From the IMG/VR virus record IMGVR_UViG_2681813271_000010: a stretch of 13,134 nt of DNA. One strand, 5' to 3'. The notes beneath the pieces are model-generated. The model was given only the letters and a program-made list of their open reading frames with translations, had not been told where the DNA came from and made no database searches. Shown here piece by piece: positions 1,329 through 7,253 of this stretch. This DNA is from a virus. Taxonomy: Duplodnaviria; Heunggongvirae; Uroviricota; Caudoviricetes. How positions within the stretch are numbered: position 1 is the stretch's first letter; each line of letters opens with the position of its first letter. The translations under genes and the position numbers were made by a program.

Positions 1329-1403
<75 letters not shown>

Positions 1404-1406
1404 ATA

Positions 1407-1482
<76 letters not shown>

Positions 1483-1484
1483 GC

Positions 1485-1561
1485 TGGCCCACCACCGAGG
1501 ACTCGAACCTCGCACCGTCAACTTAGAAGGTTGATGCTCTATCCGGATGAGCTAGTGGTGG
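1485..1561 (-). tRNA. tRNA-Arg (anticodon UCU, reads AGA)
   Basis: Minus-strand CCACCACTAGCTCATCCGGATAGAGCATCAACCTTCTAAGTTGACGGTGCGAGGTTCGAGTCCTCGGTGGTGGGCCA: acceptor CCACCAC/GTGGTGG (unusual C1-G72), D-stem GCTC/GAGC, anticodon stem TCAAC/GTTGA, loop CTTCTAA, CCA encoded. Confidence 0.8.
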
Positions 1562-1562
1562 T

Positions 1563-1639
1563 TGGTGGCCCTTGCTGGACTTGAACCAGCGACCTGGCGA
1601 TTATGAGTCGCTCGCTCTGACCAACTGAGCTAAAGGGCC
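1563..1639 (-). tRNA. tRNA with CAU anticodon, Ile2 (lysidine-type, ileX/ileZ-like) rather than Met
   Basis: Minus-strand GGCCCTTTAGCTCAGTTGGTCAGAGCGAGCGACTCATAATCGCCAGGTCGCTGGTTCAAGTCCAGCAAGGGCCACCA: acceptor with C4 and C5, anticodon loop CTCATAA, T-stem GCTGG/CCAGC. Closely resembles the E. coli ileX-type tRNA as I recall it. Confidence 0.8.
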
Positions 1640-1727
1640 GGAGGCAGAATAATAACCATATGTCATCACATCTGCAAACTCATCTGACCACCAGCACGTT
1701 TAACGTCCTGTGCCGTTTTTCAGGTAT

Positions 1728-1750
1728 AAAAAAACCCGCTCATCGGCGGG
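1728..1750 (-). terminator. intrinsic terminator (minus strand) between Q-like gene and tRNA cluster
   Basis: Stem CCCGC (1735-1739) / GCGGG (1746-1750) with 6-nt loop; A7 on plus (1728-1734) gives a U7 tail on the minus-strand transcript. Confidence 0.5.
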
Positions 1751-1846
1751 TTTAAGCTGTGTGGCGTAGTAACCACTCTTAACAGGATATTCAACTTTTT
1801 ACGATCNNNNNNNNNNNNNNNNNNNNNNNNNNNNNNNTTCAGGTAT

Positions 1847-1868
1847 AAAAAAACCCGCATAAAGCGGG
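1847..1868 (-). terminator. second intrinsic terminator (minus strand), near-copy of the 1728-1750 element
   Basis: Stem CCCGC (1854-1858) / GCGGG (1864-1868); A7 on plus (1847-1853) gives a U7 tail on minus. Shares the upstream TTCAGGTAT-A7-CCCGC context with the first terminator; a 31-N run (1807-1837) lies between them. Confidence 0.5.
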
Positions 1869-1947
1869 CTCTTTCAAATGTCCATGTCTGCTATTCGCCT
1901 CGCGGTACAGCTTTGCGAAGCGTACAAGAATTGAAGCAGTTTTTACG

Positions 1948-2502
1948 TCAAAAAGCAATAACTTTTTTCTCTATACCAAAAGCCATAACCATTGGTTTGT
2001 ACAAAATAAATTCTGCCACCTTTAGCCAATGCTCAATGCGTCTTTCACAGGTTCTTAAACTCCATTTCGGGTGTGCATCATTCAGCAGTTCAGCCATTTT
2101 GCGTTTGGTCATCCCCCGCCCCTCATACCGTTGCCGAAGGACGCTAATCAATCCTGGATGCTCTGCCAGCACCTCACTTATGACCCGATCAATACATAAC
2201 GCCTCTGCATCAGTACAATGCGCCAGCCAGCTCTTTTGCTTACCGTTAATCATATCCCGCAAAAAAGCCTCAAGTTCAGACTTGTTCAGACCTGCTTTTT
2301 TCATCCTCCGGAGCGCCTCGTTAATTGCCGTTTTTGTCAGCTTTTTAGAGGTCAACATCAGGTTAAACATATTCCCCGTCTTACCGCCACCAATATACGA
2401 CCAGCGCCCCCACATACGTAGTTTTCCCTGAATCCAGACACTTTCCAGCGTGGTGAGACGAAGGTGTTCTCCGCTTTTTCCTGTATTCGTTGGGTAAATC
2501 AT
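1948..2502 (-). CDS. putative late-gene antiterminator (Q-like, 184 aa); function assigned mainly by position
   Basis: ATG at 2502-2500 preceded by AAGGAGGG Shine-Dalgarno; ATGA overlap with the upstream gene in the intact copy at 5789-5792. Sits immediately upstream of two terminators, the tRNA cluster and the lysis cassette, which is the Q position in lambdoid phages. Family not recognised with certainty. Confidence 0.55.
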   Translation of the reverse strand: MIYPTNTGKSGEHLRLTTLESVWIQGKLRMWGRWSYIGGGKTGNMFNLMLTSKKLTKTAINEALRRMKKAGLNKSELEAFLRDMINGKQKSWLAHCTDAEALCIDRVISEVLAEHPGLISVLRQRYEGRGMTKRKMAELLNDAHPKWSLRTCERRIEHWLKVAEFILYKPMVMAFGIEKKVIAF

Positions 2503-2547
2503 AAATATCCCTCCTTTCTCCAGATTTCTTGTGTGCGAAAAACACCT
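2267..2547. repeat. 281-bp segment identical to 5557-5837, ending at an 11-N run
   Basis: Direct comparison of 2267-2547 with 5557-5837 shows an identical sequence (5' portion of the Q-like gene plus the last codons of the DUF1364-like gene). Copy 1 ends at the N-run 2548-2558; copy 2 begins right after the N-run 5546-5556. Confidence 0.85.
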
Positions 2548-2558
2548 NNNNNNNNNNN

Positions 2559-3008
2559 CGTGAACTCAACCTGACCGTGTTTATCGAAGTGGCTCAGTAA
2601 TGCGCATCCATCATTTTCGATAGATGTGTTTTGTGCCGCTGGTGGCTGTTTCTGGTTGAAATAACAGTCTTCCAGTTTTTCGAACACTTCCCACGCCTGA
2701 TCGGTTTCGAGCATTTTGGCGTGACGGGCTGCGCCACGTTCTGTCCAGAGGATGAGGGAGCGAACGTTACGGGCAATTTTCACAGAAACTCTTAAAGAGT
2801 TTTCGTTCTTCAACTCTCGTAACGCATCACCTTCTATCAGGAAAAAATGTTTACCTTCTATAAACCGTTCTTTGTTTCGATTGAAATTGTTTGTCAAACG
2901 CTGGCGCTCTGTTCCGTACAAATCAGCCAGCAGCTCTGTTGTCATGACAGGAAGATGGTTATGCGTAAGTGACGGGAGTTTTTCAATAGACGTGCGATTC
3001 ATAGACAT
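2559..3008 (-). CDS. ORF6N/antirepressor-like phage protein, 3' end truncated at N-run
   Basis: ATG at 3008-3006 with AAAGGA 6 nt upstream. Translation MSMNRTSIEKLPSLTHNHLPVMTTELLADLYGTERQRLTNNFNRNKERFIEGKHFFLIEGDALRELK... resembles ORF6N-domain antirepressor-type proteins (recalled, not searched). The frame runs into the N-run at 2548-2558, so the C-terminus is not visible. Confidence 0.5.
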
Positions 3009-3145
3009 GTCCTTTCGAATATTTTGATTTACCCCTTTTGAGAGGGTGACCGGGCGCTCAAAACCGTCGAAAGTCGGCGGGCGTATTTCCATTGCTGGTA
3101 TTGTATTAGCCGCACACCCGGTCATAAACCAAGAATTCTGGACAC

Positions 3146-3173
3146 AAAAAAACCACATGGCTATCGGGTGTGG
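3146..3173 (-). terminator. intrinsic terminator downstream of the Q (82/21-type) promoter region, tR'-like
   Basis: Minus-strand CCACACCCGATAGCCATGTGG followed by T7 (complement of A-run at 3146-3152). Confidence 0.5.
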
Positions 3174-3208
3174 ATACCGCTTTCGAGGTGTTTTGAGCAC
3201 CGCGGGGA

Positions 3209-3314
3209 AATGTAAACTGCAAACCTGAAACTGTCAACACCGTCAGGTTCCAATCCCGACGCCAGATTTTGCTGGCGCGTGAGGAATATAGCCCCGGACA
3301 ATGTGTCTGGTCAA
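3209..3314 (-). promoter_or_regulatory. two tandem sigma70-like promoters immediately downstream of Q (pR'-like)
   Basis: Minus strand: TTGACC (3314-3309), 18-bp spacer, TATATT (3290-3285); and TTGACA (3238-3233), 18-bp spacer, TACATT (3214-3209). Both fire toward the terminator at 3146-3173. Confidence 0.4.
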
Positions 3315-3318
3315 GCAC

Positions 3319-3911
3319 CTACATAATTCGTTCTACGTATCTGTCCATCTCCAGCCGGATATCAAGCATCATCAACATGCCATCAATAACCCNNNNNNNN
3401 NNNNNNNNNNNNNNNNNNNNNNNNNNNNNNNNNNNNNNNNNNNNNNNNNNNNNNNNNNNNNNNNNNNNNNNNNNNNNNNNNNNNNNNNNNNNNNNNNNNN
3501 NNNNNNNNNNNNNNNNNNNNNNNNNNNNNNNNNNNNNNNNNNNNNNNNNNNNNNNNNNNNNNNNNNNNNNNNNNNNNNNNNNNNNNNNNNNNNNNNNNNN
3601 NNNNNNNNNNNNNNNNNNNTGCCAATACAGGTATCCGAACACCCATGTTTCCGTGCCAGACTCATAAAAGTCATTCCACCTACGTAATAATCCACCAGCA
3701 AATCGTGCAAATCCTGATTTTTCTTGTTCAACCGGGCCATACAGCCACAAATTATCATTGCATCATCATCAGAACACTGAGGGCGTGATTTCACTTTCGA
3801 CGGAATTAACCCTTTAAAACCAGCAGCGATCGACGCCCAGGATACATCTTCATGAGTGTTTGCAGCCCAAGCCCCCCACCGTTCCATAACCTGCTGAATA
3901 TCACGCGCCAT
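3319..3911 (-). CDS. Q: antitermination protein Q (phage 82/21/933W type), interrupted by a 227-N run
   Basis: ATG at 3911-3909 overlapping the rusA-fragment stop (ATGGCGCGTGA). N-terminal [97 protein letters not shown]; after the N-run (3393-3619), in another frame, ...[23 protein letters not shown] then stop at 3321-3319. Both halves match the Q82/Q21 family as I recall it. Confidence 0.7.
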
Positions 3912-4122
3912 CGTTATCACCTGTGATTTCATAAATCTTCACGCCCAGTCGCCCACCAGGAACGAGCTGACCGCGCACAATATTGATTTCATCAAACTGC
4001 TCGTCGTCTATGAGTAGTCCGGCATGCGTCAGCGCATCCAGTGGTGCTTTCAGGATATTGTCCAGGTCACGACGGCGCTTATCCGGTGGCTCTGCAATAA
4101 TCTTTATCGCCAGCCTTCCGGA
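3901..4122 (-). pseudogene. rusA: rusA (Holliday junction resolvase) 3' fragment, cut by IS4
   Basis: Minus-strand frame from the IS4 left end reads [73 protein letters not shown], matching the C-terminal half of RusA (DRRRRDLDN motif). There is no start codon and the N-terminal half is absent. Confidence 0.75.
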
Positions 4123-4123
4123 C

Positions 4124-5549
4124 TAATGCCGATCAGTTAAGGATCAGTTGACCGATCCAGTGGCTGTGTAAGAATCCGGAAACGCTCACTTGTTTCCGGA
4201 TTTTTTTATGCACATTGGACAGGCTCTTGATCTGGTATCCCGTTACGATTCTCTGCGTAACCCACTGACTTCTCTGGGGGATTACCTCGACCCCGAACTC
4301 ATCTCTCGTTGCCTTGCCGAATCAGGTACTGTAACGCTACGCAAGCGCCGTCTTCCCCTCGAAATGATGGTCTGGTGTATTGTTGGCATGGCGCTTGAGC
4401 GTAAAGAACCTCTTCACCAGATTGTGAATCGCCTGGACATCATGCTGCCGGGCAATCGCCCCTTCGTTGCCCCCAGTGCCGTTATTCAGGCCCGCCAGCG
4501 CCTGGGAAGTGAGGCTGTCCGCCGCGTGTTCACGAAAACAGCGCAGCTCTGGCATAACGCCACGCCGCATCCGCACTGGTGCGGCCTGACCCTGCTGGCC
4601 ATCGATGGTGTGTTCTGGCGCACACCGGATACACCAGAGAACGATGCAGCCTTCCCCCGCCAGACACATGCCGGGAACCCGGCGCTCTACCCGCAGGTCA
4701 AAATGGTCTGCCAGATGGAACTGACCAGCCATCTGCTGACGGCTGCAGCCTTCGGCACGATGAAGAACAGCGAAAATGAGCTTGCTGAGCAACTTATAGA
4801 ACAAACCGGCGATAACACTCTGACGTTAATGGATAAAGGTTATTACTCACTGGGACTGTTAAATGCCTGGAGCCTGGCGGGAGAACACCGCCACTGGATG
4901 ATACCTCTCAGAAAGGGAGCGCAATATGAAGAGCTCAGAAAACTGGGTAAAGGCGATCATCTGGTGAAGCTGAAAACCAGCCCGCAGGCACGAAAAAAGT
5001 GGCCGGGACTGGGAAATGAAGTGACAGCCCGCCTGCTGACCGTGACGCGCAAAGGAAAAGTCTGCCATCTGCTGACGTCGATGACGGACGCCATGCGCTT
5101 CCCCGGAGGAGAAATGGCGGATCTGTACAGTCATCGCTGGGAAATCGAACTGGGATACAGGGAGATAAAACAGACGATGCAACTGAGCAGGCTGACGCTG
5201 AGAAGTAAAAAGCCGGAGCTTGTGGAGCAAGAGCTGTGGGGTGTCTTACTGGCTTATAATCTGGTGAGATATCAGATGATTAAAATGGCGGAACATCTGA
5301 AAGGTTACTGGCCGAATCAACTGAGTTTCTCAGAATCATGCGGAATGGTGATGAGAATGCTGATGACATTGCAGGGCGCTTCACCGGGACGTATACCGGA
5401 GCTGATGCGCGATCTTGCAAGTATGGGACAACTTGTGAAATTACCGACGAGAAGGGAAAGGGCCTTCCCGAGAGTGGTAAAGGAGAGGCCCTGGAAATAC
5501 CCCACAGCCCCGAAAAAGAGCCAGTCAGTTGCTTAACTGACTGGCNNNN
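4124..5549 (+). mobile_element. IS4 insertion sequence (about 1426 bp); last 4 bp of the right end hidden by N-run
   Basis: Left end TAATGCCGATCAGTTAAGG at 4124; right end ...CTTAACTGACTGGC at 5545 is its imperfect inverse, with the expected final ATTA falling under N 5546-5549. The length equals the IS4 size I recall. No target-site duplication is visible. Confidence 0.85.
4208..5536 (+). CDS. insG: IS4 transposase
   Basis: Translation [80 protein letters not shown]... (442 aa) is the IS4 transposase as I recall it. The ORF track begins 18 nt earlier at 4190 (MFPDFF), which is an alternative start. Confidence 0.9.
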
Positions 5550-5556
5550 NNNNNNN

Positions 5557-5792
5557 GCCTCAAGTTCAGACTTGTTCAGACCTGCTTTTTTCATCCTCCG
5601 GAGCGCCTCGTTAATTGCCGTTTTTGTCAGCTTTTTAGAGGTCAACATCAGGTTAAACATATTCCCCGTCTTACCGCCACCAATATACGACCAGCGCCCC
5701 CACATACGTAGTTTTCCCTGAATCCAGACACTTTCCAGCGTGGTGAGACGAAGGTGTTCTCCGCTTTTTCCTGTATTCGTTGGGTAAATCAT
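5557..5792 (-). pseudogene. 5' fragment of the Q-like gene (second copy), abutting the IS4 right end
   Basis: ATG at 5792-5790; encodes MIYPTNTGKSGEHLRL...LNKSELE, identical to the first 78 codons of 1948-2502, then runs into N-run/IS4. Lies inside the 281-bp repeat 5557-5837. Confidence 0.6.
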
Positions 5793-6079
5793 AAATATCC
5801 CTCCTTTCTCCAGATTTCTTGTGTGCGAAAAACACCTTCTGCATGCATCAGGCGTAATTCTTCTTTGGTGTAATCGCTGGTTTTTACCCGCCCGTCGATT
5901 AAATCGTGGCACGAGCTACAGGCAATCGCTGCCTGCATATCGTGTGGCTTTATCGCTGTTCCGCACGTTCCCGCCAGTCGGTAATGCGCCAGCACAGACG
6001 TTTCCGGATCGTGATTGCAGTAGCCAGGAATTCTGACGGTGCACATCTGCCCCCGCGCCGCTTTACGTAAATCCACCAT
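5789..6079 (-). CDS. Cys-rich nin-region phage protein (DUF1364-like, recalled)
   Basis: ATG at 6079-6077 overlaps the upstream stop (TAATG); stop overlaps the Q-like start (ATGA). MVDLRKAARGQMCTVRIPGYCNHDPETSVLAHYRLAGTCGTAIKPHDMQAAIACSSCHDLIDGRVKTSDYTKEELRLMHAEGVFRTQEIWRKEGYL has several Cys pairs. Confidence 0.65.
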   Translation of the reverse strand: MVDLRKAARGQMCTVRIPGYCNHDPETSVLAHYRLAGTCGTAIKPHDMQAAIACSSCHDLIDGRVKTSDYTKEELRLMHAEGVFRTQEIWRKEGYL

Positions 6080-6678
6080 TACGCAAACTCCAGCAGCTGC
6101 GCGGCCACATTTTCGACTTGTTCCGGAGAGGAAAATTTACGGAACAGAATCCAGTTCCACAGCACATTCAGAACAGATTTATAAACCTGCTGAAACTCGG
6201 TTTCGTCCATATTCGCAAACGCGATAGATTTCGCCCGACACCCACGGCTACCGTCCGGATAAAAATGCTCGGTGTAAAATCCGGCCTGAATGGCTACCCA
6301 CTCGCGGAAAGCCTCAAACGACTTTAGCAATGCCGTATCACTGGTTCTGCGTGTCGCAACTGTATTCAGATATTGCTCTGCGGCTTCGCTCAGAGCTGGC
6401 GTATGTTCCCGGCCTACTGATTCACACAGGTAATCAACGAAACCGGACACCAGTTTTCGTTCGCGAGGCGTGATCGCCCCACCGACCGGAGTCCAGTAAT
6501 CGAAACCCAGTTGCAGGAGTTTGAAAAAACGCTTGTGGAATGCGTAGTTACACACACGCTTAAAGTCTGCGTGTATCCACTCACCTATTTTGATTTGATG
6601 CAGAAAATCGCAACTCTCCGGCGTCGCCGGGAGAAGTAATCCGGAAGAGGTTTGTTTGACCAGTTGTATATGTGCCAT
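6079..6678 (-). CDS. nin-region phage protein (DUF1367-like, recalled), 199 aa
   Basis: ATG at 6678-6676 with GGAG 8 nt upstream (MAHIQLVKQTSSG...). The ORF-track start at 6720 is a TTG, so 6678 is preferred. Translationally coupled to the downstream gene. Confidence 0.6.
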   Translation of the reverse strand: MAHIQLVKQTSSGLLLPATPESCDFLHQIKIGEWIHADFKRVCNYAFHKRFFKLLQLGFDYWTPVGGAITPRERKLVSGFVDYLCESVGREHTPALSEAAEQYLNTVATRRTSDTALLKSFEAFREWVAIQAGFYTEHFYPDGSRGCRAKSIAFANMDETEFQQVYKSVLNVLWNWILFRKFSSPEQVENVAAQLLEFA

Positions 6679-6716
6679 CGGCTTTCTCCGGTGGCACGGT
6701 GTTACACAGCAGGAGT

Positions 6717-7004
6717 TCAATCCTGCTCAAGATTGTAGATGAGTTTATTCTTCAGCAAAAGCAGAAAACCAGCCTTAAAACCAATCTCTTTCAAAACCCG
6801 TAATGATGTGACAAATTCGTCCTCACGCAAAATAAAACCGTCCGTCAGAAGTCCATTACAAAAATAAAATAACACAGCACCGCTCTTCCTTTGTTGAGAT
6901 TGCAAACATCTAATGCGGCAATGGCTGACAATCGCTCCATTCTCAACGCGCACAGCATAGAGGCCATTTTCACTAAAAATTTCACGCAATTCTTCGATTT
7001 TCAT
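6717..7004 (-). CDS. hypothetical small phage protein (95 aa)
   Basis: ATG at 7004-7002 with GGAAGGA 7 nt upstream; MKIEELREIFSENGLYAVRVENGAIVSHCRIRC.... First gene of an apparent four-gene unit with the next three genes downstream. Confidence 0.55.
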   Translation of the reverse strand: MKIEELREIFSENGLYAVRVENGAIVSHCRIRCLQSQQRKSGAVLFYFCNGLLTDGFILREDEFVTSLRVLKEIGFKAGFLLLLKNKLIYNLEQD

Positions 7005-7085
7005 CTTCAGAATCCTTCCAGATAAATAGCTCTCCCCTGTTCGGGGTCCATCCCTCTTCTCCCTGCGCGCTACTTAAGTGAGTCG

Positions 7086-7113
7086 ATTCTATCTGCGAAG
7101 GTGCGCGAATCAA
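7086..7113 (-). promoter_or_regulatory. candidate sigma70 promoter for the 7004-5789 gene set
   Basis: Minus strand TTGATT (7113-7108), 16-bp spacer, TAGAAT (7091-7086), about 80 nt upstream of the ATG at 7004. Confidence 0.35.
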
Positions 7114-7133
7114 ATTCACCGGAAATAAACAAC

Positions 7134-7176
7134 AAAAAACCCGCCGAAACGCTGAGAGATCACAGCGATGGGCGGG
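7134..7176 (-). terminator. intrinsic terminator at the 3' end of the hok mRNA
   Basis: Stem CCCGCC (7140-7145) / GGCGGG (7171-7176) with a long loop; on the minus strand followed by a U-run (complement of A-run 7134-7139). Confidence 0.5.
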
Positions 7177-7253
7177 TTAAGTGCGGGTGCGTTGAGGATG
7201 CCTGACACATCAGAGGTGGGCGGGGATGGGATCAGCTCCCCGCCCGGTCACTC

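Follow-up and report, generated by a model that had tools for sequence, protein, structure and literature searches.

Positions 2,559-3,911 of a 13,134 nucleotide (nt) stretch of viral DNA (IMG/VR record IMGVR_UViG_2681813271_000010; the whole stretch is called the window here) hold a Q antiterminator gene followed by a gene for an ORF6N-domain, antirepressor-type protein, both on the minus strand like all genes relevant to this analysis. The region is probably the Shigella/Escherichia coli version of the antQ-isrK-orf45 (C4-like RNA)-anrP locus of Gifsy-1 in Salmonella, in an incomplete copy, most of whose anomalies are probably due to a gapped, mis-scaffolded assembly. The layout itself (antQ-isrK-anrP in Gifsy-1) has already been described. 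E. coli and Shigella prophages often have it, and the annotation of many E. coli genomes shows the orders RusA, Q, ORF6N and DUF1133, ORF6N.

The window was compared with three kinds of sequence: a Shigella sonnei contig (L005), contigs from IMG/VR with 99-100% identity (L012-L018), and an E. coli prophage, the nearest one, from FDAARGOS_944 (L004). Other loci named below come from E. coli EC12 (L001), O157:H7 (L002), Salmonella (L006), and Gifsy-1 (L011). The features of the section under study are, in the direction of transcription:

3319-3911, minus strand: Q antiterminator gene (PF06530), by profile match, with flanks 100% identical to L005 and L012-L016
3285-3314, minus strand: promoter P1 (TTGACC-18-TATATT), equivalent of the isrK promoter and candidate Q-loading late promoter
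3240-3291, minus strand: 5' part of an IsrK-like RNA with the a1/b1 targets of C4, RNA 5' end at 3278, below the Rfam threshold
3246-3255, minus strand: junction of a 154-nt gap, with a single copy of the repeat GATTGGAACC left
3209-3237, minus strand: promoter-like P2 (TTGACA-17-TACATT), gene-proximal; in phage Nil2 the corresponding position ahead of antB has an annotated promoter
3201-3187, minus strand: small hairpin GGTGCTCAAAACACC, kept across Salmonella, E. coli, Shigella, and Shiga toxin (Stx) phages
3173-3146, minus strand: terminator-like hairpin followed by seven U (U7), conserved in Salmonella, E. coli, Shigella, and Stx phages, with pairing kept through an A/G-T/C double change (one compensatory change)
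3040-3123, minus strand: sRNA-Xcc1-type structured element in the ORF6N 5' leader (Rfam RF02221, 77.4 bits against a gathering score of 53)
2559-3002, minus strand: ORF6N-domain antirepressor-type gene, codons 1-148 of 187 from ATG 3002 (150 if from ATG 3008), 3' end absent

The ORF6N gene and its protein

The open reading frame (ORF) running from 3008 to 2559 contains the ORF6N domain PF10543 at residues 15-99 of the fragment (75 bits against a gathering score of 27.8, E=5.8e-21). Full-length homologues have 185-188 amino acids (aa), and the closest, P0001 of S. sonnei (187 aa, 99% identical), likewise passes the PF10543 gathering score. P0001 matches PHROG 2379, 'anti-repressor', at residues 2-187 of 187 (E=6.8e-85), of which the window shows the first 148-150 codons only. 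It is 50% identical to STM2616 (AnrP) of Gifsy-1 over 97% of its own length by tblastn (48% in an end-to-end alignment), and the two proteins share unchanged the core LILWTERGAARHAKMLETDQAW..FEKLEDCYF. An earlier note on this DNA, made from the letters alone, had placed an ORF6N antirepressor-type gene, and not a lysis or morphogenesis gene, first after Q. The PF10543 match, the end-to-end PHROG 2379 match, and the AnrP homologue at the same position bear this out, and the contrary finding that the note had named, a full-length match to a structural or lysis family, did not appear in PHROG and Pfam searches with P0001. Its further suggestion of a defence or anti-defence factor fared poorly, with PADLOC returning just weak ORF6N-domain matches to a candidate system, PDC-S05 (E=1.7e-7, 29 bits), whose partner genes were not searched for. 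A structural, lysis or defence role for the gene, considered as a candidate, was dropped as unsupported by the PHROG, Pfam, and PADLOC searches.

The likely start of the gene is ATG 3002 (MNRTS...), which lies 7 nt after an AGGA, is used by the NCBI protein P0001, and is the sole ATG in other alleles. The earlier note had chosen ATG 3008 with a good ribosome-binding site; the AGGA is indeed present, but ATG 3008 stands only 1 nt from this Shine-Dalgarno sequence. At the other end, the gene stops at codon 150 (counted from 3008) at the run of N (N-run) at 2548-2558, and the final 37 codons are missing. They had been thought lost in the N-run, yet they are not merely hidden by it: the 49 nt past the N-run (2547-2499) encode GVFRTQEIWRKEGYL*, the exact C-terminus (last 15 codons) of a DUF1364 protein, and a DUF1133 gene follows. 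A 169-aa protein read through the N-run was rejected because its tail is that DUF1364 C-terminus.

Among alleles of the ORF6N protein the central core is kept and the N-terminal and C-terminal parts are swapped, some copies carrying the C-terminal domain of the P22 antirepressor. A sister allele from E. coli, P0045 (226 aa), combines ORF6N with this domain (PF10548, P22_AR_C, E=9e-30), and P0001 has no match to PF10548 at E<=0.1. The allele pattern fits a modular antirepressor with a variable end that would pick its target, and is also compatible with DNA binding. In an AlphaFold (AF2) model of P0001 (predicted local distance difference test, pLDDT, 74), made from an alignment that left out the Gifsy-1 and O157 sequences, two domains (residues 1-115 and 130-187) are joined by a disordered linker. 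The best solved matches to the N-terminal domain in a fold search were winged-helix, MerR-type, Par/RacA, and excisionase DNA-binding domains, all of them weak and generic, and a sequence search of solved structures with the ORF6N protein gave zero matches. This resemblance, together with matches of P0001 to PHROG 4936 and PHROG 995 ('transcriptional regulator'), is what speaks for a DNA-binding transcription factor that activates or represses phage promoters instead of binding and inactivating a repressor. We regard such a factor as quite unlikely: the profile families nearest to the protein bear the annotation anti-repressor, PF10548 is present in sister alleles, and AnrP induces Gifsy-1 (PMC4825925).

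Promoters and RNA elements between Q and the ORF6N gene

The Q gene runs from ATG 3911 to a TAG stop at 3321-3319. Its visible N-terminal 97 aa match PF06530 (E=5e-42), as does the full-length Q of a relative (128 aa, E=2e-52). Within the gene, the N-run at 3393-3619 (227 N) breaks the reading frame and corresponds to 21 nt in the nearest relative. The window Q is of the same PF06530 kind as the Q of phage Nil2, annotated 'similar to 21 Q' in the Nil2 record, and differs from the Gifsy-1 Q, which is of the PF06323 kind and annotated in its record as similar to phage 82 Q; this corrects the label '82/21-type' given to the module earlier.

The spacer between the Q stop and the ORF6N ORF measures 310 nt in the window. 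Two promoters and a terminator had been noted there, and sites are present at 3314-3285 and 3237-3209 together with the hairpin and U7 at 3173-3146, but the promoter count alone is not above chance (3 sigma-70-like sites against 1.8 +/- 1.2 in shuffles). P1 is kept in 59 of 60 related loci and lies 6 nt upstream of the 5' end of Rfam isrK. A terminator scan of positions 2400-4200 reported none; the hairpin at 3173-3146 came from the alignment, and the scan overlooked it because its loop has 11 nt.

What the earlier interpretation left out, while correctly putting an antirepressor-type gene after Q, is a layer of RNA elements and the gene's own module of P2, terminator, and Xcc1 element, which Stx phages carry in their nin region as well; the interpretation likewise took no account of the window copy being truncated and non-collinear. 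Between the antiterminator gene and the ORF6N gene, L005, L001, L002, and L006 carry four Rfam elements above the gathering score, namely c4-a1b1 (RF03163), isrK (RF01394), C4 antisense RNA (RF01695), and sRNA-Xcc1 (RF02221). Gifsy-1 (L011) has isrK, C4, and c4-a1b1 above the Rfam thresholds and no Xcc1. An isrK with its promoter and terminator is present in L005, L001, L002, L006, L011, and L012-L019, and all close relatives have C4 with a leader ORF (76 aa in L005). The window retains Xcc1 as its sole above-threshold spacer RNA. Its c4-a1b1 scores 39.2 bits against a gathering score of 46.7, and its isrK, reduced to the promoter and 5' hairpins and borrowing a downstream hairpin, scores 35.8 bits against 50, both falling short because the rest of the RNA is missing. 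C4 is absent from the window; like the start of the leader ORF and the isrK terminator, it is missing because of the 154-nt gap.

The Xcc1 element also stands directly before ORF6N genes in L001 (6961-7044), L002 (6959-7042), L006 (5970-6053), L009 (5173-5256), and L010 (4083-4166), at 75-79 bits, and the pairing spans E. coli, Shigella, and Salmonella prophages and Stx phages. It has been noted in an APSE-phage paper as well. The element may be a cis-acting leader of ORF6N genes instead of a free small RNA (sRNA). In O157:H7 the slot after Q is packed with regulatory RNAs: behind the ORF6N gene come a tRNA, STnc100, and AgvB, an anti-GcvB sRNA (Rfam; L002, 7947-8202).

The Gifsy-1 order is antQ, PisrK, isrK (a terminated sRNA), orf45/STnc1160, anrP, isrJ, as set out in Hershko-Shalev et al. 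2016 (PMC4825925), on which the following statements also rest. In Salmonella, anrP is driven by the isrK promoter, with part of the transcripts passing the IsrK terminator, and the long RNA stays translationally silent until it has paired with the short IsrK and orf45 has been translated. Expression of AnrP (STM2616) raises the messenger RNA of the antQ operon and induces Gifsy-1. The isrK promoter is active in Salmonella lysogens (stationary phase, low Mg2+), and the regulation shown runs from AnrP to antQ. The Gifsy-1 record lists STM2617 (Q), a1b1/isrK/C4, STM2616 (187 aa), isrJ, a tRNA, isrI, gogA, holin, lysin, and Rz. Gifsy-1 is thus like the intact relatives of the window in having an antiterminator gene, an isrK promoter and sRNA with a1b1, a C4-like RNA over a leader ORF, a 187-aa ORF6N protein, a tRNA, and lysis genes, but differs in its Q (PF06323 against PF06530 here), in the absence of the Xcc1/P2 unit, and in isrJ downstream. 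Of the Gifsy-1-type features, the window has the upstream antiterminator gene and the AnrP homologue, and it lacks the isrK terminator, C4/orf45, and the 3' end of the gene.

In the intact locus of the nearest relatives, P1 comes after the Q antiterminator gene. It would produce a short, terminated IsrK RNA, in which the a1/b1 targets of a C4-type antisense RNA lie. Read-through RNA would cross the C4-like RNA and the leader ORF, then the second promoter/terminator unit and the Xcc1-type leader, and would reach the gene for the 187-aa ORF6N protein, a putative antirepressor-type inducer, before a terminator, the tRNA cluster, and the lysis genes. The cognate Q may load at P1 and boost read-through into the antirepressor and lysis genes, which could set up a positive loop in which Q leads to antirepressor, antirepressor to derepression, and derepression to more Q.

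The same plan is seen in part in three other systems. The immI operon of phages P1 and P7 (c4 antisense RNA-icd-ant) has a promoter-proximal a1/b1 RNA, a processed C4-type antisense RNA, a short ORF, and an antirepressor gene, and the likeness extends to Rfam C4 (RF01695) and c4-a1b1 (RF03163), which are above threshold in the window's relatives. In contrast to immI, the unit here follows Q in lambdoid prophages and the antirepressor is an ORF6N protein; the short RNA of Salmonella, moreover, is described as activating, not repressing, translation (PMC4825925). Stx phages (Nil2, 2851, P13374, and Shigella phage 75/02) have an ORF6N N-terminal domain 54-67% identical to the window type, and before antB they have the same proximal unit, consisting of a promoter, a hairpin with a CAAAAC loop, a hairpin with U7, and the Xcc1 leader. 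In Nil2 and 2851, however, the P2 unit precedes antB and isrK-C4 precedes antA in the nin region, upstream of roi/ninG/Q and not after Q, and antB has the length of P0045 (226 aa, with PF10548), P0001 being without PF10548. The Ant protein of Phi24B, whose C-terminal part is described as P22 Ant-like, assists induction (PMC3064807). Phage lambda offers the third likeness, with a Q gene, then a strong promoter (pR'), a short terminated 6S-type transcript ending at tR', and late genes. At the P1 loci the sequence between -35 and -10 is specific to the Q family, and lambda has its Q-binding element in that place; the first gene reached by read-through is an antirepressor gene here and the holin gene in lambda.

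Gaps, joints and duplications in the window

The window is probably best read as a scaffold with gaps, assembled from a genome that contains a number of related prophages, and the truncation of the ORF6N gene and its adjacency to DUF1133 would then be artefacts. This reading follows from wrong N-run lengths, from duplications that flank N-runs, and from a parallel case in L019. Further features on which it draws are:

4126-5545, plus strand: IS4 element, transposase ORF 4190-5536 (NCBIfam IS4 transposase, E=1.5e-90), far end hidden by the N-run at 5546-5556
3901-4123, minus strand: 3' part of rusA left behind where IS4 interrupts the gene, corresponding to RusA of L005 (1415-1786)
2548-2558, no strand: N-run at a non-collinear junction, with pieces from two prophage types on either side
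1838-2547, minus strand: L004-like prophage piece, with the last 15 codons of DUF1364 (2547-2499), DUF1133 (2502-1948), and a terminator (1870-1838)
1663-1806, minus strand: true 3' flank of the ORF6N gene with a terminator (about 1752-1722), 100% identical to L005 3229-3372 and leading into the tRNA cluster
1329-1639, minus strand: tRNA cluster of Met/Ile-type CAT (Ile in the relatives' annotation), Arg TCT, Thr TGT, and Gly TCC, then holin and lysozyme (about 620 to 1)

The window has nine N-runs (637-662, 1807-1837, 2548-2558, 3393-3619, 5546-5556, 8426-8571, 8717-8727, 9520, and 12931-12955). Their lengths cannot be taken as real distances, an option that was rejected, since a run of 227 N takes the place of 21 nt and one of 26 N, next to ten consecutive G, that of about 2 nt. 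Three internal duplications abut N-runs: 2267-2547 equals 5557-5837 (100%), 8572-8716 resembles 8749-8893 (94.5%), and 9130-9429 resembles 9521-9820 (90%). The first of these, an exact repeat of 281 nt, brackets the entire block of IS4, truncated rusA, Q, and truncated ORF6N. The pieces 1838-2547 and 5557 onward overlap by these 281 nt and together rebuild the L004 arrangement, and a 21-nt overlap ties 1838-1858 to 1719-1739. Sorted in this way, the pieces 1-636, 663-1739, 1838-2547, 5557-8425, and 9521-12930 rebuild an L004-type prophage (...DUF1367-DUF1364-DUF1133-terminator-tRNAs-holin), and the pieces 2559-3392, 3620-4123, and 1663-1806 form a second prophage type (rusA-Q-spacer-ORF6N-flank-tRNAs). 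Two contigs without N, L016 and L017, show the second type whole: Q, isrK, C4, Xcc1, ORF6N (187 aa), flank, four tRNAs, holin, and lysozyme. They match the window pieces at 99-100% identity, and their complete ORF6N gene joins the flank seen in the window from 1806 to 1663.

The 154-nt gap in the spacer is clean in the alignment and is bounded in relatives by two copies of the 10-nt direct repeat GATTGGAACC. The segment lost comprises the 3' half of isrK with its terminator, C4 in its entirety, and the beginning of the leader ORF (the orf45 analogue), and it is present in 8 of the 8 closest relatives. Its junction was absent from 5,426 E. coli genomes, IMG/VR, and the GTDB representatives, and an exact look-up of the 70-aa ORF across the junction gave no record. 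The gap may be either a strain-specific deletion between short repeats or a false join in which two contig ends were merged at the 10-nt repeat; a merge could produce it because the lost segment is a multi-copy repeat.

In L019, an IMG/VR scaffold, a similar L004-like piece (hypothetical gene-DUF1367-DUF1364-DUF1133-terminator) sits within the 3' end of the ORF6N gene, with single Ns at the joints (3568 and 5532) and a 38-nt duplication; this insertion is more likely a mis-join that recurs than a genuine rearrangement specific to a lineage. Such a parallel can also be turned the other way, to hold that the window arrangement is real and the antirepressor gene a dead remnant without its C-terminal domain, fused in frame to the DUF1364 tail upstream of DUF1133, with a true loss of 154 nt between the b1/b2 repeats. 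If the N-run is counted as 11 nt, the ORF6N frame does continue in frame into GVFRTQEIWRKEGYL* and overlaps the DUF1133 start, the 154-nt gap lies inside uninterrupted sequence with the direct repeat at its borders, and IS4 in rusA could be the sign of a decaying prophage. We nevertheless consider a real remnant unlikely. Both joints of the inserted piece are N-runs of demonstrably unreliable length; the piece has 281 nt in common, at 100% identity, with sequence 3 kb away, and 21 nt in common with the piece on the tRNA side; every relative free of gaps carries the gene in full, along with the 154 nt; and the deletion junction, absent from the collections searched, would look the same after a merge of contig ends.

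The IS4 insertion in rusA (4123/4126) is itself probably real, because it lies within contiguous sequence. The rusA/IS4 junction had zero matches in GTDB representative genomes and IMG/VR and is covered by no complete E. coli genome. Beyond IS4 and its N-run stands the 5' part of a DUF1133 gene, not the remainder of rusA, which could come either from IS4-mediated recombination between two prophages or from a scaffold join. The DUF1133 gene at 1948-2502 (minus strand) matches DUF1133 at E=2e-107 and, weakly, PF06530 at E=8e-7. DUF1133 fills the Q position in L004-type, O157, and Salmonella prophages. The family, still called 'unknown function', is probably a Q-like antiterminator family, judging from this position and the weak PF06530 match.

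Elsewhere in the window, the slot of the tRNA cluster, from the antiterminator/antirepressor region to holin, is the one used by Stx phages for tRNAs and stx. A sok antitoxin RNA (Rfam RF01794, 117 bits) lies at 7404-7579 (minus strand), part of a hok/sok (hokD-type) module in the prophage nin region, and a gene at 7637-8323 (minus strand) in the prophage early region is annotated as epoxyqueuosine reductase QueH in relatives.

Possible Q dependence of the antirepressor gene

ORF6N genes were surveyed in IMG/VR and the reference loci, giving 80 evaluable copies, and an antiterminator gene was counted as upstream if it ended less than 700 nt away. Such a gene stands just upstream of 60 of the 80 copies (35 PF06530, 20 DUF1133, and 5 PF06323), nearly all of which carry isrK and C4. 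From TCCGGGGCTATATT onward P1 is invariant, and the preceding 10 nt after the -35 track the antiterminator family in 59 of 59 cases (TTGACC.. / TTGACT.. / TTGACACAAA..). Read from the -35, the three forms are:

PF06530: TTGACC AGACACATTG (and close variants)
DUF1133: TTGACT CAATCTGTTA / CTGTTTGTTA
PF06323: TTGACA CAAACAGTTA

In lambda, the Q-binding element is located between -35 and -10. Because the family-tracking 10 nt sit at the corresponding place, we infer by analogy that P1 is a Q-loading late promoter and IsrK a short, terminated late transcript, and the 10 nt after the -35 are candidate Q-binding elements for the three antiterminator families. Q-dependent late expression of the ORF6N gene, as the earlier note had proposed, is on this pattern plausible.

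Carried further, the isrK promoter would be the true Q-loading promoter (the pR' equivalent) for PF06530, PF06323, and DUF1133 proteins by way of the 10-nt element. The antirepressor gene would then be the first late gene, closing a positive loop (Q to antirepressor to repressor loss to more Q) that locks in induction and can spread to co-resident prophages, and the 154-nt loss would be a natural variant without c4 and terminator. We put this fuller proposal forward tentatively, at somewhat short of an even chance. In a different account, the ORF6N gene is an autonomous 'moron' cassette that brings along its promoters and attenuators and is RNA-controlled in the lysogen, independently of Q, the site after Q being a favoured insertion spot. 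It draws on the activity of the isrK promoter in Salmonella lysogens and the action of anrP upstream of antQ (both from PMC4825925), on the units of P2, hairpin with U7, and Xcc1 before antB and of isrK-C4 before antA in the nin region of Nil2 and 2851, and on L058, L071, and L085, in which the cassette stands upstream of ninG-Q. It has to contend with the 60 of 80 copies directly after an antiterminator gene of one of three families, with the P1 spacer that tracks this family, and with the fact that neither L016 nor Gifsy-1 has another family-tracking promoter on the way from Q to the lysis genes. Full Q independence of the cassette is possible but rather doubtful, and an autonomous cassette and a Q-loading P1 are compatible with each other.

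Several points weigh against reading the region as a Gifsy-1-type locus with a Q-loaded antirepressor gene and a window copy damaged in assembly. The match between P1 spacer and Q family could be plain linkage, since the spacer begins within 10-40 nt of the end of Q and the sample contains many closely related loci. In the nin region this cassette stands at a distance from any Q gene, as in the three loci just named, and adjacency to Q is therefore frequent and not obligatory. Identity to AnrP does not exceed about 50%, and alleles vary in their C-terminal domain. The functional support is from Salmonella and not from this allele or Shigella. Direct repressor binding by AnrP is not demonstrated in the parts of PMC4825925 consulted. 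The artefact origin of the truncation and of the 154-nt gap, drawn from comparison of sequences, falls short of proof.

With the Gifsy-1-type reading, the window gains a correct annotation, and this Shigella/E. coli prophage region joins a module that has been studied in Salmonella. Readers of the window should be warned that the truncated gene, the second Q-like gene behind it, and the missing C4 RNA are probably assembly artefacts. The wider value, a modest new angle, lies in one conserved promoter/sRNA scaffold that appears to be paired with three antiterminator families by a 10-nt swap. If true, the swap would give the Q-binding elements of DUF1133 and PF06323 proteins, and the Q-antirepressor loop would be directly testable.

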